From the NCBI GenBank assembly GCA_963842525.1, contig CAWJGT010000009.1:1568001-1632000 (forward strand): a DNA stretch of 64,000 nt. Reading direction: 5' to 3'. Each line of letters opens with the position of its first letter. Position 1 is the stretch's first letter. Shown in pieces: positions 9,001-53,500 of this stretch. The notes below the pieces were generated by a model. It saw only the letters and a list, made by a program, of their open reading frames with translations. It did not search any database and was not told where the DNA came from. The DNA is from an uncultured Holophagales bacterium. Lineage in GTDB: Bacteria; Acidobacteriota; Thermoanaerobaculia; Multivoradales; UBA5704. The position numbers and the translations under genes are program-made.

Positions 9001-12000
9001 GGCGAGGCGGTGCAGGTGGTCGCGCCGGAGCCACCGGGGAGCCTGCCCTGCGTCGACCTGCGGGGCCTGCCGGCGGCGGCCCGGGAGGAGGAGGTCCGGC
9101 GCCTGGCGCGGCAGGAAGCCCTGGCGCCGTTCGACCTCTCCCGGGGCCCGCTGCTGCGCAACTCGCTGCTGTCGCTAGCGGCCGACGAGCACGTCGTGCT
9201 CGTGACGATGCACCACATCGCGAGCGACGGATGGTCGATGGGCGTGCTGACCCGCGAGCTGAAGGCGCTGTACGAGGCCTTCGTGGGCGGCCAGCCGTCG
9301 CCGTTGCCCGAGCTGTCCGTGCAGTATGCGGACTTCGCCGTCTGGCAGCGCGGCTGGCTCTCGGGCACGGTGCTCGCGGCGGAGCTGGAACACTGGCGCC
9401 GGCAACTCGCAGGGGCTCCGGCGGCCACCGAGCTGCCGCTCGACCGGCCGCGGCCGGCGGTGCGGAGCTGGCGCGGCGGCCTGAGGACATTGGCGCTGCC
9501 GGCCGCGACCTCGGCCGCGCTGGTCTCGCTCGCGCGCTCGTCCGGGGCGACACTGTTCATGACGCTGCTCGCGGCCTGGCAGAGCCTGCTCCACCGCTAC
9601 ACCGGGCAGCTCGACCTCACCGCGGGCACGCCGATCGCGGGCCGTAACCACCTGCAGCTGGAAGGGCTGATCGGCTGTTTCGTCAACACCCTCGTACTGC
9701 GCACAGACCTCGGCGGCGACCCCGGTTTCCTGGAGCTGGTGGGCCGGTTGCGCCAGGTCACCCTGGACGCTTACGCGCACCAGGACCTGCCGTTCGAGAA
9801 GCTGGTGGAGGAGCTGCAGCCGGACCGGAACCTCAGCCACTCGGCACTGTTCCAGGTGATGTTCATCCTGCAGAACACGCCGCAGGAGCGCCTGGAGCTG
9901 CCGGGGCTGGAGATGGCGGCGCTCGGCGGCCAGGGCCTCGAGGCCAAGTTCGACCTCACCGTCGCGGTGACCGAGGAAGGGGGGCGGCTGCGCGCGGCTC
10001 TCGGCTACGCGGCCGAGCTGTTCGACGGCGCCACGGCCGAGCGGCTGCTCGGCCACTTCGCGGAGCTGCTCGGCGCCGCCGTGCTGGAGCCGTCGGCGCG
10101 GCTCTCGGAGCTGCCGCTGCTGCCGGCGGAGCAAAGGTGGCAGCTCCTGGGCGAGTGGAACGACCGGCCGGGCGAGGCGCCGCCGCGGGCCTGCCTGCAC
10201 GAGCTGTTTGCCACCCAGGCGCGGCGGACCCCGAACGCGGTGGCCCTGGTCGACGGCACCCGGCGGGTGAGCTTCGGCGAGCTCGACGAGTGGTCGGACG
10301 CCCTGGCCTCGGCGCTACTGGAGCGCGGGCTCGGCGACGGCGCCCAGGTGGGTTTCTTCGTGGAGCGCGGCGCCGCCATGGTGGCCGCCCTGCTGGGGGT
10401 GCTCAAGGCCGGGAGCGCCTACGTGCCGCTCGACCCCGCCTATCCGCGCGAGCGCCTGTGTCGCATGCTGGAGGGCTCGGGAGTGGCGGCGGTGCTGACC
10501 CAGGAGGCCCTGCGCGAGCTGCTGCCGGCCGGCGCGCCATCCTTGACTCTGGAGGAGCTGGGGGTGGGCGGACGGGGCCGGAAGCGGGGAATCGTGGCGC
10601 CGGAGTCGTTGGCCTACGTCATCTACACCTCGGGCTCGACTGGCCGCCCGAAGGGGGTGGGCATCGAGCACCGCAGCGCGGCCGAGCTGCTGGCCTGGGC
10701 GGCGAGCGCCTACAGCCGGGAGGAGATCGCCGGGGTCCTCGCCGTCACCTCGATCTGCTTCGACCTGTCGGTGTTCGAGCTGTTCGTGCCGCTGTCGCTC
10801 GGCGGCACGGTGATCCTGGCGCGCGACGCCCTGGCGTTGCCCGAGCTGCCGGCCTGGGGCGAGGTGACGCTGATCAACACGGTGCCGTCGGCGATGGCGG
10901 AGCTGGTGCGTCAGGGCGCCGTGCCGTCGTCGGTGAGGACGGTGAACCTGGCGGGCGAGCCGCTGCGCAACGACCTCGCCCAGGCGATCCATGCCGCCGG
11001 CGGCGCGGGCGTGCGGCGGGTGCTCAACCTGTACGGCCCGTCGGAGGACACCACCTACTCCACCGGTGCCGAGGTGGTGCCGGGCAGCCGGCGCGAGCCC
11101 TCGATCGGCCGCCCCTTGCTGCGCACGCAGGCGTACCTGGTGGACCCGTCGGGCGGGGCGGTGCCGCTGGGGGGGGCCGGAGAGCTGTGGCTCGGCAGCG
11201 CCAGCCTGGCCCGGGGCTATCTCGGGCATCCGGAGCTGACCGCGGAGCGGTTCGTGCCCGATCCCTTCGGCGTGCAGCCGGGCAGACGGCTTTATCGCAC
11301 CGGCGACCTCGCCCGCTTCCGCACCGACGGCGAGCTCGAGTACCTGGGCCGGGTGGACCAGCAGGTCAAGGTGCGCGGCTTCCGGATCGAGCTGGGGGAG
11401 GTAGAGGTCGCCCTCGGGCAGCACCCGGACGTGCGCGAGGCCATTGCCGGGATCGTGGAGAGCGCCCCGGGGGAGAAGCGCCTGGTCGCCTGGGTGGCGG
11501 CGGGCGTGCCGGGAGAGCCGCTGGCGCCGCGGCTGCGGAGCCACCTTCGCGCCCTGCTGCCCGAGCCCATGGTGCCCTCGCTCTTCGTCGAGGTGGACGC
11601 CCTGCCGCGGCTACCCAACGGCAAGGTGGACCGGCGCGCGCTGGCCTCTCTGGCAGCGCGGGAGGAGGCGCGGCCGGCCGGCGACGGCCGGGCGCCGCGC
11701 ACCGCCGAGGAAGAGCTGCTCGCCACCCTGTGGGCCGGGGTGCTGGGACGCGAGGCCGTCGGCCTCCACGACAACTTCTTCGACCTCGGCGGGCACTCCT
11801 TGCTGGCGATGCGCATCGTCACCCGGGCGAGCGAGGCGTTCGGGATCGAGGTCCCGCTGCGCTGGCTGTTCGAGCAGCCGACCGTGGCGGATCTCGCGCG
11901 GCGGGTCGCGGCCGCCCGCAGCGAGGAGCGCGGGCTGCTGCTCCCCTGCATCGCGCCGGTGCCGAGGACCGGCCCCCTGCCGCTGTCCTTCGCCCAGGAG

Positions 12001-14400
12001 CGGCTGTGGCTCGTCGATCAGCTCGATCCCGGCAACCCGGCCTACAACATGCCGCTGGCGCTGCGCCTCCAGGGCCACCTGGACGCCGGAGCGCTCGCCG
12101 TGGCGCTCGGCCAGGTGGTGGCCCGGCACGAGGTGCTGCGCACCACCTTCGGGATCGCCGGGGGCCAGCCGGTGCAGGTCGTGCACCCGGTCGGTTCGCC
12201 GCTCGTGCCGGGCGTCGACCTGGGCGCCCTGGAGCCGGGGGAGCGCGAGGAGGAGCTGGCGCGGCTCCTGCGCGAAGGCGCCGCGGCCCCCTTCGACTTG
12301 GCGCGCGGGCCGCTCTGGCGCGTCGTCCTGTTCCGCCTGGCGCCGCGGGAGCACGCCCTGTTCTGCAACCTCCACCACATCGTCCATGACGAATGGTCGA
12401 CGGGGATCCTGGTGCGGGAGCTGGAGGCCCTCTACGCCGCCATCCGGAGCGGCCGGCCCTCGCCCCTGCCGCCGCTGCCGGTGCAGTACGCCGACTTTGC
12501 CGTCTGGCAGCGGCAGTGGCTCACCGACGAGTTGCTGGAGGGCCGGATCGATGAGCAGCGGCGGCGGCTGGGGGGCGGCCTGCCGGTCCTGCGGCTGCCG
12601 ACCGACCGCCCGCGCCCGCGGCGGCCGAGCTTCCGCGGCGGCACGATCCCGTTGCGCGTGCCGGCCAGCCCGGCCAGCGCCCTCGCCCGCCTGGGGCGCG
12701 AGGAGACCGCCAGCCCGTTCATGGTCCTGCTGGCGGCGCTCAAGGCCTTCCTCTACCCGTACAGCGACCGCTCGTCCGTGGCGGTGGGGACCGACTTCGC
12801 GGGGCGGGGGCGGCTTGAGGTCGAAGGCCTGCTCGGCTTCTTCGTCAACGTCCTGCTGCTCCACACCGATCTCGGCGGGGACCCCAGCTTCCGGGAGGTG
12901 GTGCGCCGGGTGCGCTCCTCCACCCTGGAGGCCTACGCGGACCAGGACCTGCCTTTCGAGCGCGTGATCGCGGGCCTCCAGCCGCAGCGGGAGTCGGGGG
13001 TCCCCGGCGTCCAGGTCCTGTTCGTCCTCAGGAGCCCCGAGAGCGCCAGGCTGCGGCTGCCCGAGGTGGACGCCGCCCAGATCCCCCTGCTGCGGGACAC
13101 CTGCAAGTTCGACCTGGTGCTGGTCGTCGACGCCGGCGAGGAGGAGATCACCGGCGCCCTGTCCTACAGCACCGATCTGTTCGACGGCGGCACCGCGGAC
13201 CGTATCGCCCGGCAGCTCGAGGGCTTCCTGGTCGCGGTCGCCGCCGGCCCCGAGATCCGTCTCGGTCCATTGCACGAAAGACAGCAGATCTTCACCCAGG
13301 AAAGGGGGTCCGGCATGTCCGGCGAGATGGAGGAGAGGGACGGCAGCCCGCGTCCCAAGACCACGTTCAAGAGGCGCAGCGGCAGCCGCAGAGGGGGGGT
13401 CGACCTCTCCCGGATGGACCTCGTGCGGCTGGGGGAGATGAGCCCCGGGCAAACCCTGCCTCTCCTCGTCGAGCCTAACGGCCTGGAACTCGACCTCGCC
13501 GAATGGCTGGCGGCCAATCGCGAGCTTCTGGAGAGCCGGCTGGCGTCCCACGGCGCCGTGCTGTTCCGCGGCTTCGGCATCCGCTCCGCCGCGGCCTTCG
13601 AGCGCTGCGCCCAGGTGCTCTGCCCCGAGCTCTACGGCGAATACGGGGACCTCCCCCGCGAGCAGTTCGGCGAGAAGATCTACTCCTCGACGCCCTATCC
13701 GCCGGATCAGCCGATCCTGTTCCACAACGAGAGCTCGCAGATGCACCTCTGGCCGCTGCGGCAGTTCTTCTGCTGCCTGACGGCGGCCCGGGAAGGTGGG
13801 GAGACGCCGCTCGCCGACGGCCGCGAGGTCTACCGCCGGCTGGATCCGGCGCTGGCGCGCCGGTTCGCGGAGAAGGGCCTGCTCTACGTGCGCAACTTCT
13901 CCGACGGCCTCGACATCGACTGGCGGGAGTTCTTCCGCAGCTCCGATCCGGACACGGTTGAGGCGTACTGCCAGAGCGCCTGCATCTCCTGCGAGTGGGG
14001 CGACGGGTTCCTGCGCACCCGCAAGCTCGCCCCCGCCGTGGCGGCCCATCCGAGGACCGGCGAGACGGTGTTCTTCAACCAGATCCTGGCTCACCACATC
14101 TCGTGCCTGCCGCACGAGGTGCAGGAGTCGCTGCGCTCGCTGTTCCGCGAGGACCTCCTGCCGCGCAACGTCTACTACGGCGACGGCTCGCCGATCGAGG
14201 ACGGGGTGGTCGATGAGATCCGCGCCCTCTATGAAGAGGTGGCGGTCCAGTTCCGCTGGCAGGAGGGCGACATGATCGTGGTCGACAACATGCTGACCTC
14301 GCACGGCCGCCGGCCCTTCGCCGGCCCGCGGCAGATCCTGGTGGCGATGGGCGATATGGTGCGGTCCGAGGACGTCTGGCCCGGGCCCGCCAGCGACTGA
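1..14400 (+). CDS. NRPS, 5'-truncated: (C)-A-T-C-A-T-C-A-T-C-A-T-C-TauD, with a C-terminally fused SyrP/TauD-like hydroxylase
   Basis: 4799-aa ORF beginning mid C domain. Hand-read codes: A1 DATKIGQVAK (Asx-like), A2 NAWFLGHVVK (Leu-like), A3 DAHFMADVVK (Pro-clade), A4 DLFNNALTYK (Ala). Last C has HHIVHDEW; TauD part has FHNESS and DNMLTSHGR. Confidence 0.96.
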   Translation: MTLLAAWKGLLHRYTGQLDLTVGTPIAGRTHLQVEGLIGFFVNTLVLRADLAGDPGFQELLGRVRQIVLDAYTHQDLPFERLVEELQPDRSLSHSALFQVLFTLQNTPQERLELPGLELTALPGSSGEAKFDLSLALGEEGGRLRAVLSYAAEIFDAPTAERLVAHFTELLAAVTRDPAARLSDLPLLREAERHELLVEWNDTRRSLTEGVCVHQLFEAQVERSPEALAVVCAGEALSFGELNRQANRLAHELRGMGVGPESRVVLWVRRSPAMLVGVLGILKAGGAYVPMEAEPPRERLTAILEDLAREGEPPIVVAPAELAGRLAKQRARLVPLEGAGSRSGEENPASGVGLHHAVYLIYTSGSTGRPKAVEVEHGHLLNYLQGIEDRLRLGPGSHWALMQPLSVDACKTALYPPLISGGTLHVVPEERILDGPWLADYLSRHEMDVLKLAPSHLIALQDAVPEADLLPRQWLILGGEASRRDWLLGLRAKGGCRILNQYGPTETTVAVLACEVRADLAGGPSQTVPLGRPLANSRVYVLDAALRPMPPGVAGELCIAGHGLARGYFGRPALTAEKFIPDLFAKAAEPGSRLYRSGDLARYLANGELEFLGRIDHQIKIRGFRIEPGEIEAVLCRHPAVAEAVVTGWEERPGALRLAAYLAGTQRPSTEELRGFLAERLPAAMVPSAFVFLDTLPRTAHGKVDRRSLPLPEALREESAQAPRTPVEEVLAAVWGDVLGLARVGVEDDFFALGGHSLLAVRVVSRLREALGVELPLRALFESPTLEGVAAAVEELRRGGERPVLPPIVRVPREGPLPLSFAQQRLWFLDQLEPGSAAYNIPAGLRLRGRLEVPVLAAALREIACRHEVLRTTFVAVDGDPVQAIGAEPPASLPVIDLRALPESARAEEVRHLARQEALAPFDLSRGPLLRSSLLALAAEEHVALVTMHHIASDGWSTGVLVREIKALYEAFLEGRPSPLPELAVQYADFAVWQRGWLTGEALAQELEYWRRQLAGSPAATALPLDRPRPAVRSWRGGCRTAALAGPLTTALRQLARSSGTTLFMTLLALWKSLLHRYTGQPVLTVGIPMAGRNHLHLEALIGCFVNTLALRADLGGDPGFLDLLGRVRQVTLDAYAHQNLPFEKLVEELQPDRSLRHTALFQVMFTLQNAPQERFELPGLELTALEGSNPEAKFDLVLALRETADGLAATLVYGAELFDGSTAGRMLEHLQQLAESAAAEPGTAISRLSLLPAAQRHQLVAEWNGPGPAAEDAPIHRQVERQAAAAPERMAVRDERSSYAYGELNAHANRLARHLLAMGLAAEDRVCVLLERSADLVMALLAVLKAGGAYVPLDPSYPEERLAFLIADSQAGVDRPLVITREGALAALPADRVGRARVVRLDADAAAFADESGENLPHEGLPGQLAYVIYTSGSTGRPKGVAVTQGSLSGLVAWHGEVFAVVPGDRASQIASPAFNAATWEIWPYLAQGASLAIPKAETRSSPDLLVRWLVEQAVSLCFLPTPLAEALLAEERLDRLPLRALLTGGDRLHLGPPPGLPFALYNHYGPTECTVVATWQRVESGAEGPPPIGRPIAGTEAYIVDAAGNLVPLGAPGELWIGGGSLARGYLGRPGLTAERFTPHPWGGPGLRLYRTGDLVRRLSGGELAFLGRIDRQVKVRGFRIELGEVEAALYAHPVVQSCAVVVRGNPAEDLHLAAYVVAAAMGPAGGAELRAFLQDRLPGPMVPATFTFLAELPLTPNGKIDLRSLPDEIPDKILSTAPRTPIEELLAEVWSDVLGLPRVGVEDDFFALGGHSLPAVRVVSRLREALGVELPLRALFEAPTLGGLAAAVEELRRGSERPALPPIVRVARDGPLPLSFAQQRLWFLAQLEPGSAAYNIPAGLRLRGRLEVPVLAAALAEIARRHEVLRTTFGVAGGEAVQVIAPEPLGGLPVIDLRSLPEAVRAEEVRRLARREGLAPFDLSRDPLLRSSLLALAAEEHVALVTMHHIASDGWSMGVLVRELTALYTAFLEGRPSPLPELPVQYADFAAWQRAWLTGEVLDSQLGFWREHLAGASPVLDLPADRPRPAVFSERGGLRERRQPAEVAAALAAWGRRAHATPFMALLTVWKVLLHRLTGAVDLPVGTPIANRGRLELEGLIGFFVNTLTLRTRVAPELSLREMTARVREGALSAYGHQEMPFERLVEELTPERSLAQSPLFQVMFVLHNNPREDLALPGLTLDRLPSRAVTSKFDLTLFLTQRGDGLAEQMEYASDLFDAVTIDRWLDHFGVLLEAGLAAPDLPLGDLPLLCAAERHQLRCEWNTAAEVGPLLPVHIQVAEQASLAPERTAVIDGARHLSYVEVDRLAEALASRLDARGVATDAPVGIFLERGWEMAVSLLAVLKAGGGCLPLDPGYPPDRLAFMLADSGAPVLITKERLMSQLPAFAGQVVRVEDAEEETSTVWVEAQADAESLAYVVYTSGSTGRPKGVEVPHRVLSNLIAWQLADARVPQARTLQFASPSFDASLHEVFATLAAGGTLVVATSEHRRDPDALLAWLREAAVERLFLPYVALQQLAEAWSRAGGGEPLHLREVMTAGEQLRVTPEITAFFRSLPGAVLYNDYGPSETHVVTSWALAGDPGAWPALPPIGRPLASTSVHVLDRQSQPVPLGVPGELYLGGIMVARGYLGRPDLTAERFLPDPWSEQPGGRLYKTGDLARWRPAGAVDFLGRVDFQVKIRGFRVEPAEIEAVLLAHPAVSEAAVVVRGAGARRRLVAFVQPAGAVEAGDGLHEALWAYLRERLPDYMVPAAIVALEAFPLTPSGKVDRRSLPEIEAMEAGVPAGPRTPVEEMVAGIWSELLSVGEVGPEQDFFALGGHSLLATRVVARVRSTFGVELPVRAIFESPTLAGFAAVVAAGLRSGTGLVAPPTIERADRRQPLPLSFAQQRLWFLAQLEPGSAAYNLPAGLRLTGRLVVPALAAALAEIARRHEVLRTTIATVGGEAVQVVAPEPPGSLPCVDLRGLPAAAREEEVRRLARQEALAPFDLSRGPLLRNSLLSLAADEHVVLVTMHHIASDGWSMGVLTRELKALYEAFVGGQPSPLPELSVQYADFAVWQRGWLSGTVLAAELEHWRRQLAGAPAATELPLDRPRPAVRSWRGGLRTLALPAATSAALVSLARSSGATLFMTLLAAWQSLLHRYTGQLDLTAGTPIAGRNHLQLEGLIGCFVNTLVLRTDLGGDPGFLELVGRLRQVTLDAYAHQDLPFEKLVEELQPDRNLSHSALFQVMFILQNTPQERLELPGLEMAALGGQGLEAKFDLTVAVTEEGGRLRAALGYAAELFDGATAERLLGHFAELLGAAVLEPSARLSELPLLPAEQRWQLLGEWNDRPGEAPPRACLHELFATQARRTPNAVALVDGTRRVSFGELDEWSDALASALLERGLGDGAQVGFFVERGAAMVAALLGVLKAGSAYVPLDPAYPRERLCRMLEGSGVAAVLTQEALRELLPAGAPSLTLEELGVGGRGRKRGIVAPESLAYVIYTSGSTGRPKGVGIEHRSAAELLAWAASAYSREEIAGVLAVTSICFDLSVFELFVPLSLGGTVILARDALALPELPAWGEVTLINTVPSAMAELVRQGAVPSSVRTVNLAGEPLRNDLAQAIHAAGGAGVRRVLNLYGPSEDTTYSTGAEVVPGSRREPSIGRPLLRTQAYLVDPSGGAVPLGGAGELWLGSASLARGYLGHPELTAERFVPDPFGVQPGRRLYRTGDLARFRTDGELEYLGRVDQQVKVRGFRIELGEVEVALGQHPDVREAIAGIVESAPGEKRLVAWVAAGVPGEPLAPRLRSHLRALLPEPMVPSLFVEVDALPRLPNGKVDRRALASLAAREEARPAGDGRAPRTAEEELLATLWAGVLGREAVGLHDNFFDLGGHSLLAMRIVTRASEAFGIEVPLRWLFEQPTVADLARRVAAARSEERGLLLPCIAPVPRTGPLPLSFAQERLWLVDQLDPGNPAYNMPLALRLQGHLDAGALAVALGQVVARHEVLRTTFGIAGGQPVQVVHPVGSPLVPGVDLGALEPGEREEELARLLREGAAAPFDLARGPLWRVVLFRLAPREHALFCNLHHIVHDEWSTGILVRELEALYAAIRSGRPSPLPPLPVQYADFAVWQRQWLTDELLEGRIDEQRRRLGGGLPVLRLPTDRPRPRRPSFRGGTIPLRVPASPASALARLGREETASPFMVLLAALKAFLYPYSDRSSVAVGTDFAGRGRLEVEGLLGFFVNVLLLHTDLGGDPSFREVVRRVRSSTLEAYADQDLPFERVIAGLQPQRESGVPGVQVLFVLRSPESARLRLPEVDAAQIPLLRDTCKFDLVLVVDAGEEEITGALSYSTDLFDGGTADRIARQLEGFLVAVAAGPEIRLGPLHERQQIFTQERGSGMSGEMEERDGSPRPKTTFKRRSGSRRGGVDLSRMDLVRLGEMSPGQTLPLLVEPNGLELDLAEWLAANRELLESRLASHGAVLFRGFGIRSAAAFERCAQVLCPELYGEYGDLPREQFGEKIYSSTPYPPDQPILFHNESSQMHLWPLRQFFCCLTAAREGGETPLADGREVYRRLDPALARRFAEKGLLYVRNFSDGLDIDWREFFRSSDPDTVEAYCQSACISCEWGDGFLRTRKLAPAVAAHPRTGETVFFNQILAHHISCLPHEVQESLRSLFREDLLPRNVYYGDGSPIEDGVVDEIRALYEEVAVQFRWQEGDMIVVDNMLTSHGRRPFAGPRQILVAMGDMVRSEDVWPGPASD
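2161..2990 (+). repeat. T-C(N-lobe) coding segment repeated with high nucleotide identity at about 5338-6160; the C portion recurs at about 8815-9360
   Basis: Long near-identical runs, e.g. gtccgggtggtctctcgcctgcgcgaggcgctcggggtggagctgccgctgcg and gacgatgcaccacatcgcgagcgacgg, recur in the successive modules. Confidence 0.85.
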
Positions 14401-14448
14401 AGCAGCTTGCAACGAGATCGGGTAGCAATCGATATCAAGGAGACAGCG

Positions 14449-14694
14449 ATGAATCAAGCACCGGCAGCCGGATTCCCCCTCACCACCGCGCCGCGCCACG
14501 TGTTCGACCGCGCCATACACGAGTCGGGGGCGTGCTCCCCGAGCAGATCGACGAGGCAGGTGATCCAGCCCCTGCTGGGCGAGGGTCCAGAGGCACCGCT
14601 GGCTGACGCCCGACTCCCCGTGAGGATGTGGTCAATGTCGTTCGCAATGGAGTCCAATCCCGGCGGAGAGATCTCCGTCTTGCGAAGACTCTAG
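14449..14694 (+). pseudogene. Relic 5' end of an interface-domain NRPS gene (MNQAPAAGFPLT...)
   Basis: AAGGAG RBS at 14437-14442 and ATG at 14449. The first 12 codons align with the start of the NRPS at 16655 (MDNQPAAGFPLT), after which similarity is lost. Confidence 0.6.
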
Positions 14695-14708
14695 ACAATG
14701 GTTATACT
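14680..14708 (+). promoter_or_regulatory. Candidate sigma70-type promoter upstream of the radical SAM gene
   Basis: TTGCGA (14680-14685), 17-nt spacer, TATACT (14703-14708), in the only long intergenic, AT-richer stretch of the window. Confidence 0.55.
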
Positions 14709-14912
14709 TGCTCGCTTGCTAGTGATTGGAGTTGCCCTCATGTTGTATCTACTGGCTGTCCTCCTCTCTTGTCGAGCTTCTTCGAACGGCGGGGGGATCG
14801 GGCGGCGCTTGGTGGCCTGCATCCTCGCCGGGCGATCCTTCTCGGGTTCCCGGCGGATCCTGGTAGTGATGGGGGACGGTGCGTTCCGAAGATGTTTGGA
14901 ATTCTCGTCCTC

Positions 14913-14928
14913 TTTTGAGTTCTCAAAA
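14913..14928. promoter_or_regulatory. AT-rich palindrome, possible operator
   Basis: TTTTGAG-TT-CTCAAAA: perfect 7-bp inverted arms, 22 nt upstream of the AGGAG RBS at 14951-14955. Confidence 0.4.
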
Positions 14929-14963
14929 CAATTTGACGGCGCAGCCGTTCAGGAGATCCGACT

Positions 14964-16622
14964 GTGAATGATCAGATTTCTCTGGACTGCATGGTCATAG
15001 GCTATAACGAGACCCCCTTCGAGCGATATGAGCAACTGCTGATGCAGTACGGGAGGGATACCGAAGCGTACCGCGACCTGCAACTCAGCTTTGTCGAGGT
15101 AGACGGACGGAAGCTGACTTATGCGGGGCTCCTGAGCTCGCTGTGGCACCAGGCCCGGGGCGCGTCCGACCCATGCCGGCAGGGGCCGTTCAAATCCGGT
15201 GACATTCCCAACCTTGCCGCAGTCTATCTCACTATCTATCTGCGGCGGCAGGGATTCACGGCGGACTACCTCAATCTTTTCCAAGACGAGAAGGATCGTT
15301 TGGCCGATATCCTCGCGCACGGAGTGCGTACAGTAGCGATTACCACAACGTTCTATGTTCTTAACTTCCCCGTGACCGAGATGGTCCAGTTCATCCGCAG
15401 CATCGATAGTGGAGTGAAGATCGTGGTGGGGGGGCCCCTCGTTGCAAACCATCTCCGCAATTACCATAACCAGGGCGATCTGATTACGGCATTGGACGAC
15501 ATCGGTGCTGACATCTATGTCCATGACTCGCAGGGTGAATGGACGCTCTGCCAAGTCCTGGCTGCTTTGAAGGGCAAGGGGGACCTCGGGCAGGTCCCCA
15601 ACCTGATCTACCGAGAAAACGGAACTTATCACCGCACGGCTGCACATGGGGAGAACAACTCGTTGGACGAGAACGCCATTGACTGGCGGATGCTGTCGGA
15701 TCACGACCTCGGGCCAACACTGCAGACCCGGACAGCGCGCAGCTGCGCCTTCTCCTGCTCGTTTTGCAACTACCCAACCCGTGCTGGTCGTCTGACTCTC
15801 GCCGGTCTCGACACATTGGAGCGGGAATTCAATTCGATGCGCGACTTGGGGAATATCGAGAATGTGATCTTCATCGATGATACCTTCAACGTGCCGCTGC
15901 CGCGGTTCAAGGAGATTTGCCGGCTTCTCATCGATCGTCAGTACGGTTTCAACTGGTACTCATATTTCCGGTGCAGTAACGCCGATGAGGAAACCTTCGA
16001 TCTCATGGCCGCGAGCGGATGCAAAGGTGTGTTTTTAGGTATTGAATCGGGCTCGCCGCGCATTCTCAAGAATATGAACAAGGCGGCAACAGTCGAGAAG
16101 TACGCAAATGGAATACGCAACCTCAAAGAGCGTGACATCCTCACCTTCGCATCCTTCATCGTCGGCTTCCCCGGGGAGACGCCGGAGACAGTGGGGGAGA
16201 CGGCCGAGTTCCTCACCAGCCACCGTCCGGACTATTATCGGGTCCAGCTCTGGTACAACGAACCAGGAACTCCGATCCATGACCAGGCCGATACCTACGG
16301 CATCATGGGAGACGGCTTCGTCTGGAATCACAAGACGATGGATAGCATGGAGGCGATGGATCACATCGAGCGACTGTTCCTGACCATCGATGGCCCCATC
16401 TGGTTGCCGCAATGGTCGTTTGATTTCTGGATCATTCCCTATTTTATGGGAATGGGGATCAGCCGCAAACAGTTCGATCATCAAATGCGGCTCGCACAGC
16501 AGCTTCTCAGCCTCGAGATCGCGTCCGTTGGACGGAGTACGCGTGAGAAGTTGCAGAACGAAATTCTGGGCGCCATGAAACGGGACATCGCCGGCTGGAA
16601 CCCCGCAGTCTCCAGCGCGTAA
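14964..16622 (+). CDS. Cobalamin-dependent (class B) radical SAM methyltransferase, PhpK-like family
   Basis: GTG start with AGGAG RBS; CxxxCxxC motif (RSCAFSCSFC); B12-binding-type region (VAITTTFYV...IVVGGP); FIDDTFN, GIESGS and IVGFPGET motifs; N-terminal DCxxIGxN pattern resembling the PhpK family. Confidence 0.88.
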   Translation: MNDQISLDCMVIGYNETPFERYEQLLMQYGRDTEAYRDLQLSFVEVDGRKLTYAGLLSSLWHQARGASDPCRQGPFKSGDIPNLAAVYLTIYLRRQGFTADYLNLFQDEKDRLADILAHGVRTVAITTTFYVLNFPVTEMVQFIRSIDSGVKIVVGGPLVANHLRNYHNQGDLITALDDIGADIYVHDSQGEWTLCQVLAALKGKGDLGQVPNLIYRENGTYHRTAAHGENNSLDENAIDWRMLSDHDLGPTLQTRTARSCAFSCSFCNYPTRAGRLTLAGLDTLEREFNSMRDLGNIENVIFIDDTFNVPLPRFKEICRLLIDRQYGFNWYSYFRCSNADEETFDLMAASGCKGVFLGIESGSPRILKNMNKAATVEKYANGIRNLKERDILTFASFIVGFPGETPETVGETAEFLTSHRPDYYRVQLWYNEPGTPIHDQADTYGIMGDGFVWNHKTMDSMEAMDHIERLFLTIDGPIWLPQWSFDFWIIPYFMGMGISRKQFDHQMRLAQQLLSLEIASVGRSTREKLQNEILGAMKRDIAGWNPAVSSA

Positions 16623-16654
16623 TTGTGCCCTCGGCGAAGACTTAGAGGGTGTTT

Positions 16655-27848: not shown

Positions 27849-27863
27849 CCGAGGCTACTCAAA

Positions 27864-28889: not shown

Positions 28890-28920
28890 GGAAAAGGTTC
28901 CTGTTCGGAGGCCCCAGCAG

Positions 28921-44700: not shown

Positions 44701-47611
44701 GTCCACCTGGCAAGCCTTTCCCCTGCAGGCGAGCTCCTGACGAGCGCTGAGGCCTTTTCGCAGCGCCAGGAGTCCGGCTTCTTCAGCCTGCTGTGGCTTG
44801 TACAAGCTTTGGAGTCGCTGAACCACGCCGATCCCCTGCGAATCATTGTGGTGTCGAACGGTCTTCACCACGTGATCGGCCAGGAGTGCCTGTGCCCTGA
44901 AAAAGCGACCCTGCTTGGGCCCTGCCGGGTGATCCCGCAGGAATATCCCTACCTCTCGTGCCGGAATGTCGACCTCATCGTTCCCGAGCCCGGCAGTCCG
45001 CAAGAAGAGGAGCTCCTCGATCGCTTGATCGGGGAGTGTGGACGGGGTGCGGTGGAGCCCACAGTTGCCTATCGCGGTCGTTATCGCTGGGTCGAGGAAT
45101 GGGTACCCTGGCGCGGCTCCCGGGGGTCTGCACGCCTCCGGGAAAAAGGTGTTTATCTGATCACGGGTGGCCTCGGAGAGGTCGGACTGGTGATCGCGGA
45201 GCATCTGGCCCGCACCGTGCAAGCGCGGCTCGTCCTCACCCGTTTATCCGCCTTCCCGCCTCGTGATCGATGGGACGCCTGGCTCGCAGAATACGGGGAG
45301 GGAGACTTGGTGAGCCGAAAGATTCGCAAGCTGCGGGCGATCGAGCAGTTGGGGGCGGAGGTAGAGGTCGCCAGCCTGGACGTGGCTGATCTCCCCGCGA
45401 TGCGCGGTCTGCTGACAAGGATCGAGACGCGCTTCGGCACGCTGCACGGAGTTGTGCATGCCGCAGGCACCGTCGGGGGCCGGGTCTTTCGATCGATCGC
45501 AGAGACCGGGCAGGAGCAGGCGGACCTGCAGTTTCGTGCCAAGGTGCGGGGAGTGTATGTCCTTGAGGAGGTGCTGCGCGACCGATCGCTTGATTTTTGT
45601 CTGCTGATGTCCTCTCTGTCCTCTGTTCTCGGTGGCCTGGGCTTCGCCGCTTACGCAGGCGCGAACCTGTTCATGGACGCTTTCGCTGAGCTCCAGCAGC
45701 AGAAGGGAGTAGGGAGCTGGATCAGCGTGAACTGGGATGGTTGGCAGGTGAGCGAACGCCGAGAAGCGGAAGCTGAGGAACCGACCTACTCCGCCATCCG
45801 GCCGGCCGAGGGGCGGGAAGCCCTCGATCTGATCTTGGGGCTGGAGGACCTGGCCCGGGTCGCTGTCTCGACGACGGATCTCGAGGCCAGGAGCGCGCGG
45901 TGGGCCCGTCGCGAGCCGCAGGACGAGACCGGCGGCTCCCGGGAACCGGTCCCTGAGAGAGCTCCCCACCGCGGCGTTGCGGATACCATTCGAGGGATTT
46001 GGCAGGACCTGCTCGGTCTCGATCAGGTTGAGCTCGAAGACAACTTCTTCAAGCTCGGCGGAGACTCCTTGCTAGCGACCCAGTTGATCGCCAAGCTGCG
46101 ACAGGCGACCGGAGTCGCCATCCGTCTGCGGATGGTCTTCGAGACGCCGACGCTGGCCGCCCTCGCCGCGGTGATCGCCGCAGCCAGGACAGACCAGACG
46201 CTGGAGCGGCCCCCCATCAAGCCCGCGCCGCACGACCGCGAGCGTCCCCTCTCTTTCTCGCAGCAGCGTCTCTGGTTCCTGGAGCAGCTGGAGTTCGAAG
46301 TGCCTCCCTACAATACGTTTTCCGCCTTCCGACTGGCGGGTCAGCTCGACTTCGGCGCGCTCGCGGGCAGCCTCACCGAGATCGTGCGGCGGCACAGTGC
46401 CCTTCGCACCGTCTTCCTCGCTGCGGAGGGCCGGCCGTTCCAGGTCGTCGCTCCGGCCGAGGAGGTCAACCTGCCTCAGGTGGATCTGCAGGGCCTGCCC
46501 CGGGCCGAGCGTGAAGGCGAAGCCGAACGGCTGGCCGCCGCCGCCGCTGTCCAGCGTTTTGATCTCGTCAACGGACCGCTGCTCAAGGCCACGCTGCTGC
46601 GGCTGGAAGGAGCGGAATCCGTGATCCTGCTGGCGGTTCACCACATCGTCTGTGATGGCTGGTCCGTGGGGATCTTCACCCGCGAGCCTCCAGGTCCTCT
46701 ACGAAGCTCTCTCGCAAGGTCGCCTCTCCCCCTTGCCTGAGCTGCCGGTGCAATACGTGGACTACGCCGCCTGGCAGCGCGAGTGGTTGCAGGGCGAGGT
46801 GCTCGATCGACAGCTCGCTTACTGGCGGCGCCAACTAGCCAGTCTGGCCGATCTCGAGCTGCCGCTCGACCACCCTCGCCCGCGGCGCCAGACCTTCCGT
46901 GGCGCGCTGGAATTCCTGCGCCTGAGCGAATCGCTGAGCCGGGCGTTGAACGAACTGAGCCAACGGCTGGAGGTGACGCTCTTCATGGTCCTCCTCGCAG
47001 CGTTCAAGGTCCTTCTCTATCGTTACACCGGGCAGGAAGACATCGCAGTCGGTACCAATGTGGCAAACCGCAGCTGCGCTGAAATTGAAGGGCTGATCGG
47101 ATTCTTCGTCAACAACCTCGTGCTGAGGACGGATCTGTCGGGTGCCCCGTCCTTTGTGGAGGTCGTCCACCGGGTCGCCAAGACTTCTCTCGCCGCTTAC
47201 GAGCACCAGGATCTCCCTTTCGAGAGGGTCGTTGAGGAGCTGCGGCCGGAGCGGAACCCCGGCCGGCCACCCCTGTGTCAGATCCTGTTCGTTCTCCAGG
47301 TCGCCGCACAGCAGGAGCTGCGCCTGCCTGGACTGTCCATCGCGCCTTTCAGGACCCCAAGGAGGAGCGCGGCTTTCGATCTGCTGCTGAACATGAGAGA
47401 GGACGAGCAGTCCTTGAGTGGCACTCTGGAATACAACGTCGATCTTTTTGAACCTTCGACGATACAGGAGATGTTGCGTCGTTTCACCAAGCTCCTGGAA
47501 AGCGTGGTTGCCGATCCGTGGCAGCGGATCTCCTCTCTGGCGCTGCTGGAGTCTGGGGAGGAAGCCGTCCTGACCAACGGTTTTGCCGACGATCTCTGCG
47601 AGATGATGTAG
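41704..47611 (+). CDS. Type I PKS/NRPS hybrid KS-AT-KR-ACP-C; one frameshift near 46687
   Basis: KS TACSTS, EAHGTGT, NIGHL; AT GHSIGE and NAFH; KR ITGGLGEVG and AAYAGAN; ACP GGDSL; C HHIVCDG continuing in ORF 46652..47611 once an extra C is removed (IFTRE-LQVLYEAL). ATGA overlap with the upstream gene. Confidence 0.93.
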
Positions 47612-47640
47612 CGGCGTCTAGAAGGAAGGAAGCCCGATCC

Positions 47641-49508
47641 ATGTGCGGTATTACTGGCCTTTTCGATCTGCGTCAACAGTCCAGGATCGATCAAGGCACT
47701 CTTGGCAGAATGGCGCGGAGTATCGTCCACCGGGGGCCGGACTCGGAGGGATATTTCGTCGAAGGCAATGTGGCGCTCGCCTCGCAGCGGCTCAGCATTA
47801 TCGATCTTGAAGGCGGCCATCAGCCCTTATACAACGAGGACAGTTCCCTGGTCCTGGTCTGCAACGCCGAGATCTTCAACTATCGCGAGCTGCGACAGGA
47901 CCTCATCCGGCGCGGTCACAGCTTTCGCACCCGTTGTGACATAGAAGTCTTGCTGCACCTCTACGAGGAGGAGGGGAGCGGTTTCCTCGCCGGCCTCAAC
48001 GCCCAGTTCGCTTTCGCGCTCTACGACCGGAACCAAAGGACGCTCTTGCTCGCTCGCGACCACTTTGGGATCAACCCGCTTTACTTCGGAGTGTTCGATG
48101 GATTCTTCATCTTCGGTTCGGAGATCAAGGCGATCCTGCAGCATCCGGCGGCGCGCAGAGAGGTCGATCTCACCGGGCTCGATCAGATCTTTTCCTTTCC
48201 CGGTCTGGTGAGCCCGCGGACGATGTTCAAAGGGATCTCCAGCCTCAAGAGCGGTCACTACATGATCGTCAAGGACGGCTGTGTGACAGTACGGGAGTAC
48301 TGGGATCTCGAATATCCGAAGGTCGGTGAGGAGCCGGAGGAGCGCACGGAGGAATACTATGTGGAACGACTGCGGGAGTTGTTTTTCGATTCCGTGCTCC
48401 GGCGCCTCCAGGCTGATGTACCGGTCGGCTTTTATCTGAGTGGCGGCCTGGACTCGTCGCTGATCGCCGCCGCCATCGGCTCTGTATGCCCCGGGAGCGC
48501 CCGGCGTTCCTTTTCGATCGACTTCGCCGATCGCAATATGTCTGAGGCACAGAGCCAGGACCTGATGGCCATGCACGTCGGGTCGGTGCATGAACGGATC
48601 GTGTTTGACTGGCGCGCGACCAGTGAACGGCTGCCGCGGATGATCTACCACAGTGAGTGTCCGGTCAAGGAGACCTATAACACCTGTACCCTGGCGCTCT
48701 CGGAGGCAGCGCGGCGGGCCGGCGTCCCGGTCGTGCTGACGGGGGAAGGAGCGGATGAGCTCTTCGCCGGCTATGTCGGCTATCGCTTCGATTCCTTTCG
48801 GCAGCACAAGGAGAAGCGGTACGACCTTGAGACCATCTTGGAGGATGAGATCCGGGAGCGGATCTGGGGCAGCAAAGAGATCTTCTACGAGATCGATCAC
48901 CACGCTTTCTGCGAGACCAAGGGAGCGCTTTACAGTTGTGGTGTCAACGAGACCTTTCCGGAGTTCGACTGCCTGCGCCACGAGCTGGTCGACAAGGAGC
49001 GGCTGCGAGACCGGCACCCCATCAACAGGCGTTCGTATCTGGACTTCCACCTGCGGCTTGCGGACCATCTGCTCGCCGATCATGGTGACCGGATGGCACT
49101 CGCGCACTCTGTTGAGGGACGCCATCCCTTCCTCGACCTGCAGCTCGTCGAGTTCTGCCGGGAGCTCCTCCCCATTTCAAGATCAATAACATGCAGGAGA
49201 AATATATTCTCCGTAAGGTCGCGGCGGGGCTCATACCGGAACAGATCGCCAGCCGTGAGAAGTTCGGCTGGTTCTCCTCGGGCAGTTGCGATCTTCTGCA
49301 GGAGAACGATGCGTGGGCTCTGGACATGCTCTCTTATGAGCGCATCCGACGCCAGGGCTATTTCAACCCTGACACTGTGGAGAGGCTCAAGCGGCAGTAT
49401 GCGCGGCGGGGCTTCAAGCTCAACTTCCCGTTCGAGAGCGACCTGCTGATGATTGTCCTGACCTTCGGTTTGTTGCTCGATCTCTTCGAGTTGCCCGCTT
49501 TTGGCTAA
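47641..49508 (+). CDS. Asparagine synthetase (glutamine-hydrolysing)-like amidotransferase; one frameshift near 49168
   Basis: N-terminal MCGITG (Ntn Cys), HRGPD, RLSIID, LARDHFG, LSGGLDSS, TGEGADELF and VEGRHPFLD. The C-terminus (EKYILRK...) lies in ORF 49191..49508 and is restored by adding one C. Confidence 0.9.
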
Positions 49509-49528
49509 GAGCGATCAGGAGGCCTGCA

Positions 49529-50518
49529 ATGAAAGAGTACGTCTTCGATCCGGAACAGGGCCTGCCCCTGATCATCGAGGCCGCGGTTTCAGCCAGCGGC
49601 CCGCCGAGCCTCGACCTCCTCTCCACCCGGGTACAGCAGAACGCAGAGCGTGTCGAGACGATGCTTCTGCACCATGGCGCCTTGCTCTGGCGCGGCTTCG
49701 GAGTCAAGACTCCGGCAGGCTTCCGGCGGTTCGTCCGCTCCGTTGCCGGAGATCTCCTTGACTATGTGGACGGCAATTCGCCGCGGACCAAGCTGGCAAG
49801 CGGTGTCTATACGTCGACGGAGTACCCCCCGGAGTACTTCATCTCGCTGCACAATGAGCTGTCCTATTCTCACCGCTGGCCGGGGAGGCTCTTCTTCTGC
49901 TGCATCACGGCACCAGAGGCCCAGGGAGAGACGGTGATCGCCGACAGCCGCGCCATCCTCGCAGCGCTCAGCCCGGATCTGGTTGAGGAGTTCAAGCGGA
50001 AAAAGGTCAAGTACATCCGCAACCTGCATGGCGGGGAGGGGTTCGGGCCCTCGTGGCAAGAGACTTTCGAGACCCGCGACCGCGCGACGGTGGAGAGTTA
50101 CTGCCAGGAGGCAGGGATGAGCTACGAGTGGAAAGAGGGCGGTGTGCTCAAGGTCAGTCACACGCGCCCTGCGGTCGCGCAGCATCCCAAGACCGGCGAG
50201 TGGGTCTGGTTCAATCAGGCGGACCAGTTCCATCCTTCGACCCATCCCCAAGGGATCTATGAGGCTCTCATGTCGCTGTACCGGAATCGCGAGGAGAACC
50301 TGCCGCAGAACGTCTGCTTTGGAGACGACACGCAGATCGATATCGCGATGCTGGAGGAGGTCCGCGCCGTGACCCGTCGCCTTGCCGTGTATTTTCCTTG
50401 GTGCGAAGGGGACGTCCTGATGCTGGACAACATGCTCGTCTGCCACGGCAGGGCGCCGTTCTCGGGCCCGCGCAAGATTCTTGTCTCCATGGCGGACGTC
50501 CAAGGCGGTGAGAGTTGA
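49529..50518 (+). CDS. Stand-alone SyrP/TauD-family dioxygenase
   Basis: AGGAGG RBS; HGALLWRGF, YTSTEYP, LHNELSY, WFNQA and DNMLVCHGR motifs. Confidence 0.93.
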   Translation: MKEYVFDPEQGLPLIIEAAVSASGPPSLDLLSTRVQQNAERVETMLLHHGALLWRGFGVKTPAGFRRFVRSVAGDLLDYVDGNSPRTKLASGVYTSTEYPPEYFISLHNELSYSHRWPGRLFFCCITAPEAQGETVIADSRAILAALSPDLVEEFKRKKVKYIRNLHGGEGFGPSWQETFETRDRATVESYCQEAGMSYEWKEGGVLKVSHTRPAVAQHPKTGEWVWFNQADQFHPSTHPQGIYEALMSLYRNREENLPQNVCFGDDTQIDIAMLEEVRAVTRRLAVYFPWCEGDVLMLDNMLVCHGRAPFSGPRKILVSMADVQGGES

Positions 50519-50533
50519 ATAGCAGGAGGAGCC

Positions 50534-53500
50534 ATGAGCTTTGAGAGCATCCAGGATCTCTTTTCTCGTGCTGCCGAGAGGAACCTCGATCGGATCGCGA
50601 TCGATCAGGATGGCAACCCCTTCACCTATCGCGAGCTCGAGGCGAAGTCGAACCGGCTGGGCAACCTCCTGATCGGGCGCGGTGCGGCGCGAGGCAGTGT
50701 CGTCGGTCTGCTCGCGGACCAGCGTTCTACCGTCATCATCGGAACCTTGGGTATTCTGAAAGCGGGATGCACTTTCGTGCCGCTCGACCCCAGCGTACCC
50801 AAGGCTCGCCTCAGGCAGATGGTCACGGAGGCTGCGCCGGACTGGTTCGTGTGCGAAACGGAGGAGCTTCTCCTGCTGGCGCAGATCGCACCTGCCGGAG
50901 TGCCTGCGATCTGTTTGGACAGCACGGGGGAAGAGGACGGAGCGGGCGGCGCACACCTCGGCGCCGACACCGCCAGACCCGCCGTGGCCTCCGATCCCGA
51001 CGACATGGCCTACATCTATTTCACCTCCGGCTCGACCGGCCGGCCGAAAGGGATCGCGGGACGGCTCAAGGCGATCGATCATTTCATCCGTTGGGAGATC
51101 GAGACGCTCGGCCTCCAGCCCGGATGCCGGGTGAGCCAGCTCACCACGCCAGCCTTCGACGCCTTCCTGCGCGACGTCTTCGTCCCGCTCTGCGCCGGTG
51201 GCGCCGTTTGCGTCCCCGAGAGCCGCGGCATTGTGCTGGACGCACAGCGGCTCGTGGACTGGATCGACCTTGCAGAGATTGAGCTGATCCATTGTGTACC
51301 TTCGCTCTTCCGGTCGATCCTCAACGCGGACCTGAATCCCGATTACTTCGCGGCCTTGCGGTACATCCTGCTGGCGGGTGAGCCCCTGCTGCCGGCCGAT
51401 GTCGCCCGATGGATGAAGGTCTTCGGCGAGCGCGTCCAGTTGGTGAACCTGTACGGACCGACTGAGACCACAATGACGAAGCTCTTCCATTTCGTCACGG
51501 CTGCTGACTGCGAGCACAAGTCGGTTCCCATCGGCAAGCCCATGCCCGGCGCGCGAGCCCAGGTCATCGGCCCGGATGGCAAGGCCTGTGCGCCGGGTAC
51601 CGTGGGTGAGATCTATATCCGGACCCCTTTCCGCTCACTGGGTTATTATCGCCAGCCGGAGATGACCGCGGAGGTCTTTGTCAAGAATCCCTTCACCCAG
51701 GATCCCTCCGACCTTCTGTACCGTACGGGAGACCTTGGACGGGTCCTGCCGGACGGGAGCTTCGAATTCCTCGGGCGCAAGGACAACCAGGTGAAGATCC
51801 GCGGCGTTCGGGTGGAGCTGGGTGAGATCGAGAACCTCTTGCGCACGCATGAGATGGTCGAGGACGTCGCAGTTGTGGACCGTGAAGACAACAACGGGAT
51901 GAAGTCGCTCTGCGCATACCTGGTTCTGAAGCACCCGATCGAACCCGGCGCTCTGCGAGAGCTCCTGCTCGCTTCCTTGCCGGACGTGCTCGTGCCTTCC
52001 CGTTTCGTTGTCTTGGAGGAGCTGCCGCGCACGCTCACGGGCAAGGTGGACCGCAAGGCCCTGCCTGCGCCGGAGTCTCAGCTCTCCAACTCGGCGGGCT
52101 TCGTAGAACCTCGCTCGCTCGCCGAGCAGCTGCTGGCCGGGATCTGGTGTGATCTGCTCGGAATCCAGAGGGTCGGGATCCACCACAGCTTTTTCGAGGT
52201 CGGAGGCCACTCGCTGCTGGCCACCCAGCTCCTCTCGCGGATCCGCTCTACCTTTGAGGTCGAGCTGCCGCTGGGCCAGATGTTTGAGGCCCCTACCATC
52301 GCCGGGCTGGCAGCGAGCATCGAGGCGGCCCGCCAGAAAGTGGGGGCGGTGCAGGCACCGCCGCTGCGGCCCGTGCCGCGCGACAGGAGATTGCCTCTGT
52401 CCTTCGCCCAACAGCGGCTCTGGTTTCTCGACCGGCTGGAGCCGGCAAACCCAGCCTACAACATCCCGCACGCCGTGCTGCTCGTCGGGCCCCTGGACCT
52501 TGCCGCGATGCAGCGGGGGCTCGAGGCGATCTTCCGGTGCCACGAAGCCCTCCGTACGATCTTTCCTCTGACAGACGGGGAGCCAGCCCAGGTCGTCTGT
52601 GCTGCCGGAGCCGTGCCGCTGCCGGTTGTGGATCTCCGCGGATTGTCCGGGGTGCCGCTCGCGGCCGAGCGAGCGCGCCTGACTGCGGAGGAGGCCGTCC
52701 GCCCGTTTCTTCTCTCCCGCGACCGGATGTTACGTGCCCTGTTGCTGCGCACAGGTGAGGCGGAGCACGTGCTGCTGTTGACCATGCACCATATCGCTTC
52801 CGACGCATGGTCGATGTCCCTGCTGGTCCGGGAGTGGATGAGCTTCTATCTGGCATTCGCAGCCGGACTCTCCCCATCCTTGAGCCCTCTCCTGATCCAG
52901 TACGCGGATTTCTCCTGCTGGCAACGTGAGTGGCTGCAGGGAGAGACCAAGGAGGCGCTGGTCCACTACTGGAAACGTCAACTGGCCGGCTGCCCGCCTT
53001 TCCTGGATCTGCCGACGGATCGTCCCCGGCCCGCCGTCCAGAGCTTCCCGCGGGTCGTTCGTGGGATTCCGCCTGAGCCGCCGCCTGCGAGAGGACCTCG
53101 AAAGGTTGAGCCGCAGCAAGAATACAACCCTGTTCATGACGTTGCTGGCGTCTTTCCAGATCCTGCTGTCCCGCTGTACGGGGCGGGAAGACATCGTCGT
53201 CGGGACCCCGACCGCCGGGCGCAACCGGGCAGAGCTCGAGCAGATCATCGGTTTCTTCATCAATCCGGTCGTGCTGCGGCTCGATCTCGGCGGGAGACCG
53301 ACTTTGACCGAGCTCCTCGGCCGGACGCGCCGTGTGGTCCTCGGTGCCTTGGCTCATCAGGATCTTCCTTTCGAGATCCTGGTCGAGGAGCTGCGGCCGT
53401 TGCGGGACCGCAGCCGCGCACCGGTCTACCAGGTGGCGTTCGGCCTCCAGAACGTCCCTGCGGCCCAGGTGAGCATGCGCGACGTCGACCTGCGGAGCCT

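Follow-up and report, generated by a model that had tools for sequence, protein, structure and literature searches.

Do tailoring genes that interrupt a module of a nonribosomal peptide synthetase (NRPS) act on the residue which that module loads? The question is raised by a 64 000-nucleotide stretch of DNA from an uncultured Holophagales bacterium (positions 1,568,001–1,632,000 of contig CAWJGT010000009.1, forward strand, assembly GCA_963842525.1), referred to here as the window, which is part of a 9.95-Mb genome in 34 contigs. It carries an NRPS–polyketide synthase (PKS) line in which three modules are split between the condensation (C) domain and the adenylation–thiolation (A-T) unit, with one or more tailoring genes in each gap (Pfam and our own domain scan, whole window). 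All of the relevant genes lie on the plus strand.

The initial annotation had described three such splits, each consisting of a protein that ends in C, tailoring gene(s) and a next protein that resumes with A-T. All three were recovered, with an intact terminal C domain in every case and an A-T after every break; the second and third A-T, however, open longer proteins than that description implied (to 41707 and 56930). The pattern is not a product of chance: all three arrangements are found again in numerous other genomes. The explanation that we consider probable as a whole has three parts: the published interface (I) domain design in cases 1 and 2, a radical SAM (rSAM; SAM, S-adenosylmethionine) enzyme acting on Asp in case 1, and a cassette of an AsnB-like amidotransferase and a TauD-family hydroxylase in case 3.

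Domain order and features

The domain order was obtained from Pfam matches, a motif scan and hidden Markov models (HMMs) built on the window's own domains. With slashes marking the boundaries between proteins, the upstream part reads (C)-A-T, three C-A-T, C-TauD / rSAM / I-A-T / C-A-T-C-A-T-C / TauD; after this free-standing TauD2 follow I-A-T, three C-A-T / KS-AT-KR-ACP-C / AsnB / TauD / A-T-C-A-T-C, and the tail of the line is permease / carbamoyltransferase / methyltransferase / CmlA-like hydroxylase. Two more large open reading frames (ORFs) with NRPS motifs lie upstream of the first protein. In the following list, GC3 is the G+C content at third codon positions.

1–14400, plus strand: 3' part of a 10,975-aa NRPS ORF; (C)-A-T, three more C-A-T, then C-TauD; stop at 14400
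11956–13263, plus strand: terminal C domain of case 1, HHIVHD intact (motif scan, domain scan)
13396–14379, plus strand: TauD1, TauD-family hydroxylase domain fused behind C; His-x-Glu...His ligand positions aligned
14401–14963, no strand: 563-nt spacer with a drop in GC3 (∼0.9 to ∼0.7) that may mark a recombination joint
14964–16622, plus strand: B12-binding rSAM enzyme, PhpK family (TIGR04479; 637 bits, cut-off 600), CxxxCxxC
16649–20002, plus strand: I-A-T protein; I 16655–17998 (PSLCADV), A 18074–19579 (DLTKVGHVGK), T 19553–19774
19941–27848, plus strand: C-A-T-C-A-T-C protein; terminal C 26400–27719, HHIVAD intact (case 2)
27864–28889, plus strand: TauD2, free-standing TauD-family hydroxylase
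28921–41707, plus strand: I-A-T and three C-A-T; I 28930–30267 (PSLCADS), A 30422–31828 (DAKDLGVVDK), T 31805–32026; frameshift at 30423
41704–47611, plus strand: KS-AT-KR-ACP-C protein; terminal C 46222–47533 (HHIVCD, case 3); frameshift near 46686
47641–49508, plus strand: AsnB-like glutamine-hydrolysing amidotransferase, N-terminal Met-Cys; frameshift near 49170 in a run of C
49529–50518, plus strand: TauD3, free-standing TauD-family hydroxylase of a clade not associated with I domains
50534–56930, plus strand: A-T-C-A-T-C protein; A 50615–52129 (DARHLALMTK), T 52109–52333, terminal C 55521–56822; frameshift near 53050

The motif scan showed HHxxxD to be kept in all three terminal C domains before the breaks. 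Specificity codes were extracted from an alignment of all 13 A domains. DLTKVGHVGK (case 1) was taken to indicate Asp and DAKDLGVVDK (case 2) Glu on the basis of the published code tables, which fits the earlier Asp and Glu calls.

Hydroxylases and interface domains of cases 1 and 2

In an alignment of C-like domains the columns of the HHxxxDG motif are occupied by PSLCADV in case 1 and by PSLCADS in case 2, and in neither protein did the motif scan detect HHxxxD within the C-like region at the N terminus. Both domains match Pfam Condensation over nearly the whole profile (104 bits for 16649–20002; 194 bits for ORF 28921–30681). Each is a member of the condensation superfamily which has lost the motif and heads an A-T protein behind a TauD that follows, or is fused to, a terminal C domain; in case 1 the rSAM gene intervenes between TauD and the I domain. 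TauD1, TauD2 and TauD3 score 168.5, 171.9 and 136.8 bits against Pfam TauD (cut-off 27). The HNE and later H(G)R segments, which we take to be the Fe ligand positions of TauD enzymes, align in all three.

Homologous neighbourhoods were surveyed by a search from five I domains (best 80 of 303 loci, many of them cyanobacterial kin). An I domain was counted as assessable if at least 1.5 kb of upstream DNA was present, which left 87 of 99. Directly after a TauD gene or domain stood 68 of these 87: 27 behind a fused C-TauD, 38 in the order C/TauD, one behind TauD/TauD and two for which the DNA before TauD was not seen. In three more, another gene intervenes between TauD and I: two loci have a SAM methyltransferase there and one has MacB-type permease genes. 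The remaining 16 have no TauD. The C/tailoring/(I)-A-T order is conserved among homologues, as had been anticipated. The A domains after I carry Asp/Asn-, His-, Glu- or Gln-like codes: DLTK-type in 49, DSALIAEVWK or a near variant in 29, Glu-like in six, DAWQ-type in three and others in three. The methyltransferase gene (255 aa; L036:8922–10010 and L056:8926–10013, both cyanobacterial) lies between a free TauD and I-A(His-like)-T, an extra enzyme in the same slot. Further copies of the design were found in the present genome, as C-TauD/I-A on contig C3 and as TauD/TauD/I-A(Glu-like)-MT-T on C23. The latter locus (L009; G000:C23:108001–127900, minus strand) has tandem TauD genes before an I-A(Glu-like)-methyltransferase-T protein.

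A FastTree tree was calculated from 185 TauD sequences, each labelled with the code class of the A domain just downstream. The TauD clades track the specificity code of that domain. On this tree the code class has to change 10 times; the lowest number printed for 200 label shuffles was 51. With the unlabelled rows treated as a seventh class 36 changes are required, against a shuffled mean of 97, and none of the 200 shuffles was as low. All of these counts overstate independence because kin share labels. TauD1 belongs to a set of 40 rows (support 99), 36 of which adjoin DLTK-type (Asp/Asn-like) codes, and the rows closest to TauD2 carry Glu codes, a grouping that is not strongly supported. TauD3 is placed in the second main division (79 of the 185 rows; support 100), no member of which precedes an I domain. 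From these sequence relationships each TauD enzyme is predicted to hydroxylate the residue that the adjacent module holds on its carrier.

The design of cases 1 and 2 is not new; it is the one published for a beta-hydroxylase with an I domain. The founding paper, by Reitz et al. in 2019 (PNAS 116:19805), reportedly describes the I domain together with the integrated or stand-alone beta-hydroxylases of siderophore NRPSs. According to the myxoglucamide report (Angew Chem 2026, PMC13638107), MxgA ends in ...ACP-C-Ox and MxgB opens with an I domain devoid of HHxxxDG, followed by A(Glu)-PCP; hydroxylation of Glu on the carrier is completed only together with condensation in trans. The cyanochelin C preprint describes CcsJK as a protein with C-TauD at its end, which makes beta-hydroxy-Asp jointly with the NRPS protein that follows, CcsL. 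Profiles for these hydroxylases and interface domains exist in antiSMASH 8, and the subtypes IBH_Asp, IBH_His and TBH_Asp are distinguished in an eLife 2026 paper.

The radical SAM gene in the case 1 slot

The rSAM protein passes the NCBIfam model TIGR04479 (PhpK family) with 637.2 bits against a cut-off of 600; the Pfam B12-binding and Radical_SAM models both match, and C261, C265 and C268 are invariant. Its survey covered 81 related loci (best 80 of 101), mostly from Acidobacteriota; Phaeobacter and Dyella contributed one locus each and the myxobacteria three. In the majority of the 81 loci the gene stands in this C/A slot. The protein after rSAM opens with an I domain in 19 of the 81 loci and with the C-terminal half of a C domain (positions ∼190–439 of the C profile) in 27. 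The complete order C-TauD/rSAM/I was found in 10 loci, or 11 if the Phaeobacter locus is counted, where our own I profile fails, and the order C/rSAM/half-C in 21. This genome has a second example of rSAM in the slot, with the order C/rSAM/half-C-A-T (contig C3, ∼504–507 kb). After I the A code is DLTK.GHVGK in all 16 cases, and after half-C it is DLTK.GEVG(K) in 14 of 17; altogether, 30 of the 33 codes that follow rSAM are Asp- or Asn-like. Relatives of 39–41% identity are fused to NRPS domains, as rSAM-halfC-A-T-C, as ...A-T-C-rSAM and as rSAM-C-A-T-TE (two proteins). The nearest relatives of TauD1 are fused TauDs followed by rSAM/I.

Half-C starts after rSAM, although a complete C domain already closes the protein before, are frequent; they were seen in L184, L191, L194, L197, L199, L200, L203, L219, L227, L233, L236 and others.

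Taken together, the pseudo-C partners, the Asp/Asn-like codes and the in-line fused relatives argue that rSAM would act at the module after it, on an Asp or Asn residue, in the slot used by TauD and with a dead C-like partner. C-methylation is the reaction that membership of the family would predict. The NRPS context argues for a substrate other than a phosphinate. No phosphonate-pathway gene is among the annotated genes of the window, the rest of the genome not having been searched. Literature searches returned no report of an rSAM enzyme acting on NRPS-bound Asp, nor of PhpK with an NRPS.

The amidotransferase–hydroxylase cassette of case 3

Case 3 is of a different kind, having no I domain and a TauD of the other major clade. 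The protein after its break (50534–56930) has no N-terminal C-like domain; the code of its second A domain is DASTIAAVCK. The AsnB-like protein scores above the TIGR01536 cut-off (422.8 versus 267.1 bits); its true start, at 47641, reads MCGI, with the nucleophile Cys after Met, and its end is at 49508.

Among the relatives of TauD3 (best 80 of 459 loci), AsnB adjoins TauD in 18 of 80 loci; the order C/AsnB/TauD/A was found in seven and C/TauD/A in six. The A domain after AsnB/TauD or TauD/AsnB has a DARH-type code in 14 of 14 cases: AsnB, TauD and A-T form a conserved cassette, always with this type of code. Loci L092 and L104 repeat the window from 41 to 59 kb gene for gene, including the terminal C domain and the permease. 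The recurrence of the rSAM and AsnB-like enzymes in the same slot, with or without TauD, agrees with the initial annotation, and their presence in the C/A slot appears to be undescribed.

The code D[AP]RH occurs in 32 of the 165 A domains of the surveyed TauD3 loci, and 31 of these 32 start their own protein. TauD or AsnB genes precede 21 of the 32, and a protein ending in C stands directly before nine. In Chitinophaga loci L149, L151 and L171 three consecutive A-T-C proteins each have a DARH-coded first A domain, and TauD/AsnB precedes the third only. Since D[AP]RH domains start their own protein with or without a tailoring gene, and since some clusters have three such modules but a single TauD–AsnB pair, the C/A break here belongs to the module type. 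D[AP]RH-coded A domains define a widespread type of module. It also follows from these clusters that gene position does not uniquely mark the target module. In the case 3 clade, moreover, position is not fixed. The earlier positional rule is thus strong for the I-type hydroxylases and weak for the TauD3 type.

Arg and His at two pocket positions of the DARH code suggest an acidic substrate. A similar signature is found in the modules for the iso-linked acidic residues of microcystin. No residue could be assigned to the DARH-type code from the chitinopeptin paper, and a literature search for six ten-letter specificity codes gave no match. A literature search for AsnB-like amidation on carriers found no report; its top match concerns a different, NAD-binding domain.

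Proposed mechanism

The genes would form one very large NRPS–PKS line, possibly a natural hybrid of two, in which the enzymes encoded in the C/A breaks modify an amino acid while it is on the carrier. In cases 1 and 2 the A domain would load Asp or Glu, respectively, onto its own T domain; the TauD-family Fe/2-oxoglutarate hydroxylase, fused behind the upstream C domain in case 1 and free in case 2, would convert it to the beta-hydroxy residue, and the intact upstream C domain would then condense it in trans. The catalytically dead, C-like I domain that heads the A-T protein may serve as the adaptor. In case 1 the PhpK-family cobalamin-dependent rSAM enzyme would, in addition, most likely C-methylate the same carrier-bound Asp. 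In case 3 the DARHLALMTK domain probably loads an acidic residue, which would then be hydroxylated by TauD3 and amidated by the AsnB-like enzyme.

Action on the carrier or off the line

Several observations weigh against this account. The surveys were made with HMMs from the window's own domains, and each comprises the best 80 loci of its scan, with many close kin among them. TauD3-type genes often lie away from their likely module, other relatives of TauD3 being located behind a TE domain, between T and C domains or more than 1.5 kb from any NRPS domain. In the myxoglucamide system, the only one to have been reconstituted, the I domain was dispensable in vitro (PMC13638107), so that its role as an adaptor is putative. 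The rSAM family also occurs in NRPS-free operons (L004:1365–8877 and L006:10001–17563) with genes of the amino-acid-metabolism type, and some of its members stand behind TE domains or at a distance from the start of any NRPS protein. For Orf29, a class B rSAM enzyme encoded in an NRPS cluster, the methylated substrate is free SAM and not a carrier-bound residue, and the methylation precedes formation of the building block.

The neighbours of rSAM in the NRPS-free operons are a GHMP kinase, a pyridoxal-phosphate enzyme, an ATP-grasp amino-acid ligase and a fusion of a lyase with a beta-eliminating lyase.

The family members outside NRPS settings and the example of Orf29, together with the AsnB-like gene scoring above the cut-off of an ordinary asparagine synthase model (423 versus 267 bits), would fit a reading in which both enzymes work off the line to provide the A domain with a free substrate, either a methylated precursor or asparagine, their adjacency being co-inheritance. 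We regard this as unlikely. Against it, relatives of rSAM are fused in-line to NRPS modules on either side of the slot, and a pseudo-C domain (I or half-C) directly follows rSAM in 46 of 81 loci; the A domains after rSAM retain the usual Asp/Asn-like codes, not ones that would suit a modified substrate, and three of the 120 longer AsnB relatives listed have an AMP-binding (adenylation-type) domain in the same protein.

Composition break at the case 1 slot

GC3 is 0.87–0.98 over the final 5.4 kb of the first protein, its TauD domain included (0.87–0.95 for TauD1), and 0.89–0.94 in the three upstream genes; it is 0.71 in rSAM and 0.72–0.83 in the following genes up to the last NRPS gene. The genome has a median of 0.87 and a fifth percentile of 0.74 (493 ORFs of 400 aa or longer from three contigs). 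The spacer between TauD and rSAM measures 563 nt here versus 12–126 nt in 12 other TauD/rSAM loci, the parts of which agree in GC3 within ∼0.1. The break in GC3 and the long spacer imply that the upstream C-TauD and the downstream genes may not have evolved together, a further point to be set against the proposed account. The slot may be the place where recombination joined an acquired line to a native one, the boundary of two clusters or a mis-join.

Case 1 might then be no working unit at all, but a native high-GC3 cluster ending in C-TauD that abuts a foreign, lower-GC3 rSAM/I-A-T cluster, or a product of misassembly. Clusters that start with rSAM/I-A-T after a permease gene do exist (L178, L179, L185 and L193), five genomes of the same genus contain no close orthologue (best identity 43% for rSAM and 53% for C-TauD), and the contigs of the soil-metagenome run X1 leave 14335–15001, which includes the case 1 junction, uncovered. 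Nevertheless, a protein ending in C-TauD needs an I-A-T partner, and the motif scan found no upstream gene that begins with this domain order; TauD1 groups with the fused TauDs that precede rSAM/I, both sides of the slot share one strand and follow each other as expected, and a break at exactly this intergenic slot is the expected trace of cassette exchange by recombination. Two abutting clusters or a mis-join are on these grounds quite improbable.

Frameshifts and state of the sequence

Four frame changes break genes: at 30423 (first A domain of the gene at 28921–41707), near 46686 (C domain of the PKS–NRPS gene), near 49170 (AsnB) and near 53050 (C domain of the last NRPS gene). None of them coincides with a C/A break. 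One contig of run X1 (depth 3.4) lacks the extra base at 30423, and with this base removed 28921–41707 reads as a single 4261-aa ORF; 36 of the 38 aligned pieces of the run are at least 99% alike. The shifts near 46686 and 53050 each fit one surplus C in a short run of C and that near 49170 lies at such a run, as is typical of assembly error, and similar frame breaks are present in other NRPS loci of the same genome. All four are probably assembly errors, one site having been compared with an independent contig. AsnB does not read in one intact frame, its C-terminal part running in another frame to 49508, and this change too is probably an error of assembly. Runs X2, X3 and X4 gave small pieces only, 95–99% alike and probably from relatives; those of the RNA run X4, four short pieces, hold no evidence of expression. 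That the downstream half is a decaying, non-functional cluster whose arrangement has no present function is suggested by the occurrence of four shifts within ∼25 kb and none in the frameshift-free 33-kb upstream ORF, but in view of the X1 contig, the runs of C and the breaks at the other loci it is highly implausible.

A possible general slot for tailoring enzymes

A wider proposal is put forward tentatively, and we would sooner expect it to need revision than to stand in full. The C/A break would be a general docking slot for on-line tailoring enzymes rather than one peculiar to beta-hydroxylases, and PhpK-family rSAM enzymes an undescribed class of NRPS tailoring enzyme. These would C-methylate carrier-bound Asp or Asn, and a dead C-like domain, either a complete I domain or a C-terminal half-C, would recruit them as an adaptor. 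In combination with the fused TauD such an enzyme would give a hydroxylated and methylated Asp, a residue that to our knowledge has not been found in peptides. The slot could also be a seam at which cassettes or halves of lines are swapped, the composition break at 14.4 kb being one such event.

If tailoring genes in a C/A break act on the next module, structures could be predicted more sharply as to which residue is hydroxylated, methylated or amidated, and the cassettes of enzyme, adaptor domain and A-T would be candidates for portable engineering units. The rSAM case, if true, would extend the repertoire of NRPS reactions to C-methylation of a carrier-bound residue at an unactivated carbon and would give dead C-like domains a testable role. 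The point to follow is the C/A break shared by rSAM and amidotransferase, with dead or half C domains as partners.

Neighbouring genes and other domains

The window continues after the last NRPS protein as follows.

56938–59415, plus strand: ADOP/MacB-type permease (TIGR03434, 908 bits)
59440–61446, plus strand: carbamoyltransferase
61468–62571, plus strand: SAM methyltransferase
62615 to the window end at 64000, plus strand: CmlA-like di-iron beta-hydroxylase

The line ends in a C domain with the permease directly after it, as in L092 and L104, and there is no thioesterase at its end within the window. The last module (A domain 53820–55292) has the code DASTIAAVCK, which is Tyr-like by the published code tables; with the nearby CmlA-like hydroxylase (62615–64000) it likely represents a fourth, different kind of on-carrier hydroxylation. 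The carbamoyltransferase and methyltransferase genes separate the last NRPS protein from the CmlA-like gene. At the upstream end, the second complete A domain of the window (3883–5364; code NAWFLGHVVK) has Asn at the otherwise invariant Asp235, which hints at a substrate without a normal alpha-amino group.

Comparison with known systems

The window rSAM matches TIGR04479 and in this resembles the class B rSAM methylases PhpK/BcpD, CysS and Orf29/Swb7. CysS, of cystobactamid biosynthesis, binds a pantetheine-linked NRPS building block and sets a precedent for thioester-tethered substrates, although it is only distantly related to the window enzyme (33.5 bits). PhpK methylates phosphorus in a phosphinate peptide, whereas the annotated genes of the window include no phosphonate genes, and Orf29 acts on free SAM, unlike the on-carrier role proposed here. 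None of PhpK/BcpD, CysS and Orf29/Swb7 has been reported with a pseudo-C partner domain or at a C/A break.

TauD3 is like the stand-alone hydroxylases of the SyrP type in that it is free-standing, its partner module has no I domain and its relatives are variously placed in clusters; it differs from them in that its subgroup is tied to AsnB and to protein-starting D[AP]RH A domains. It is not an orthologue of SyrP, since according to the eLife 2026 paper the SyrP clade falls inside the I-linked Asp group.

The siderophore NRPSs with I domains, such as CcsJK/CcsL, share with cases 1 and 2 an upstream protein that ends in C or C-TauD and a next protein in which a C-like domain without HHxxxDG stands at the start, before A(Asp)-T, and in both the design is repeated within a cluster. 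The present line differs in the rSAM gene between TauD and I and in the gene content of the window, which includes a permease but no siderophore-type genes; moreover, the I-linked A domains of its relatives are also Glu- and Gln-like. In the myxoglucamide system the hydroxylase of MxgA is fused (Ox), whereas that of case 2 is a separate gene, and the window gives no hint of the subsequent steps of the myxoglucamide pathway. MxgA/MxgB nonetheless has the same split design for a Glu module and is the best functional model for case 2.

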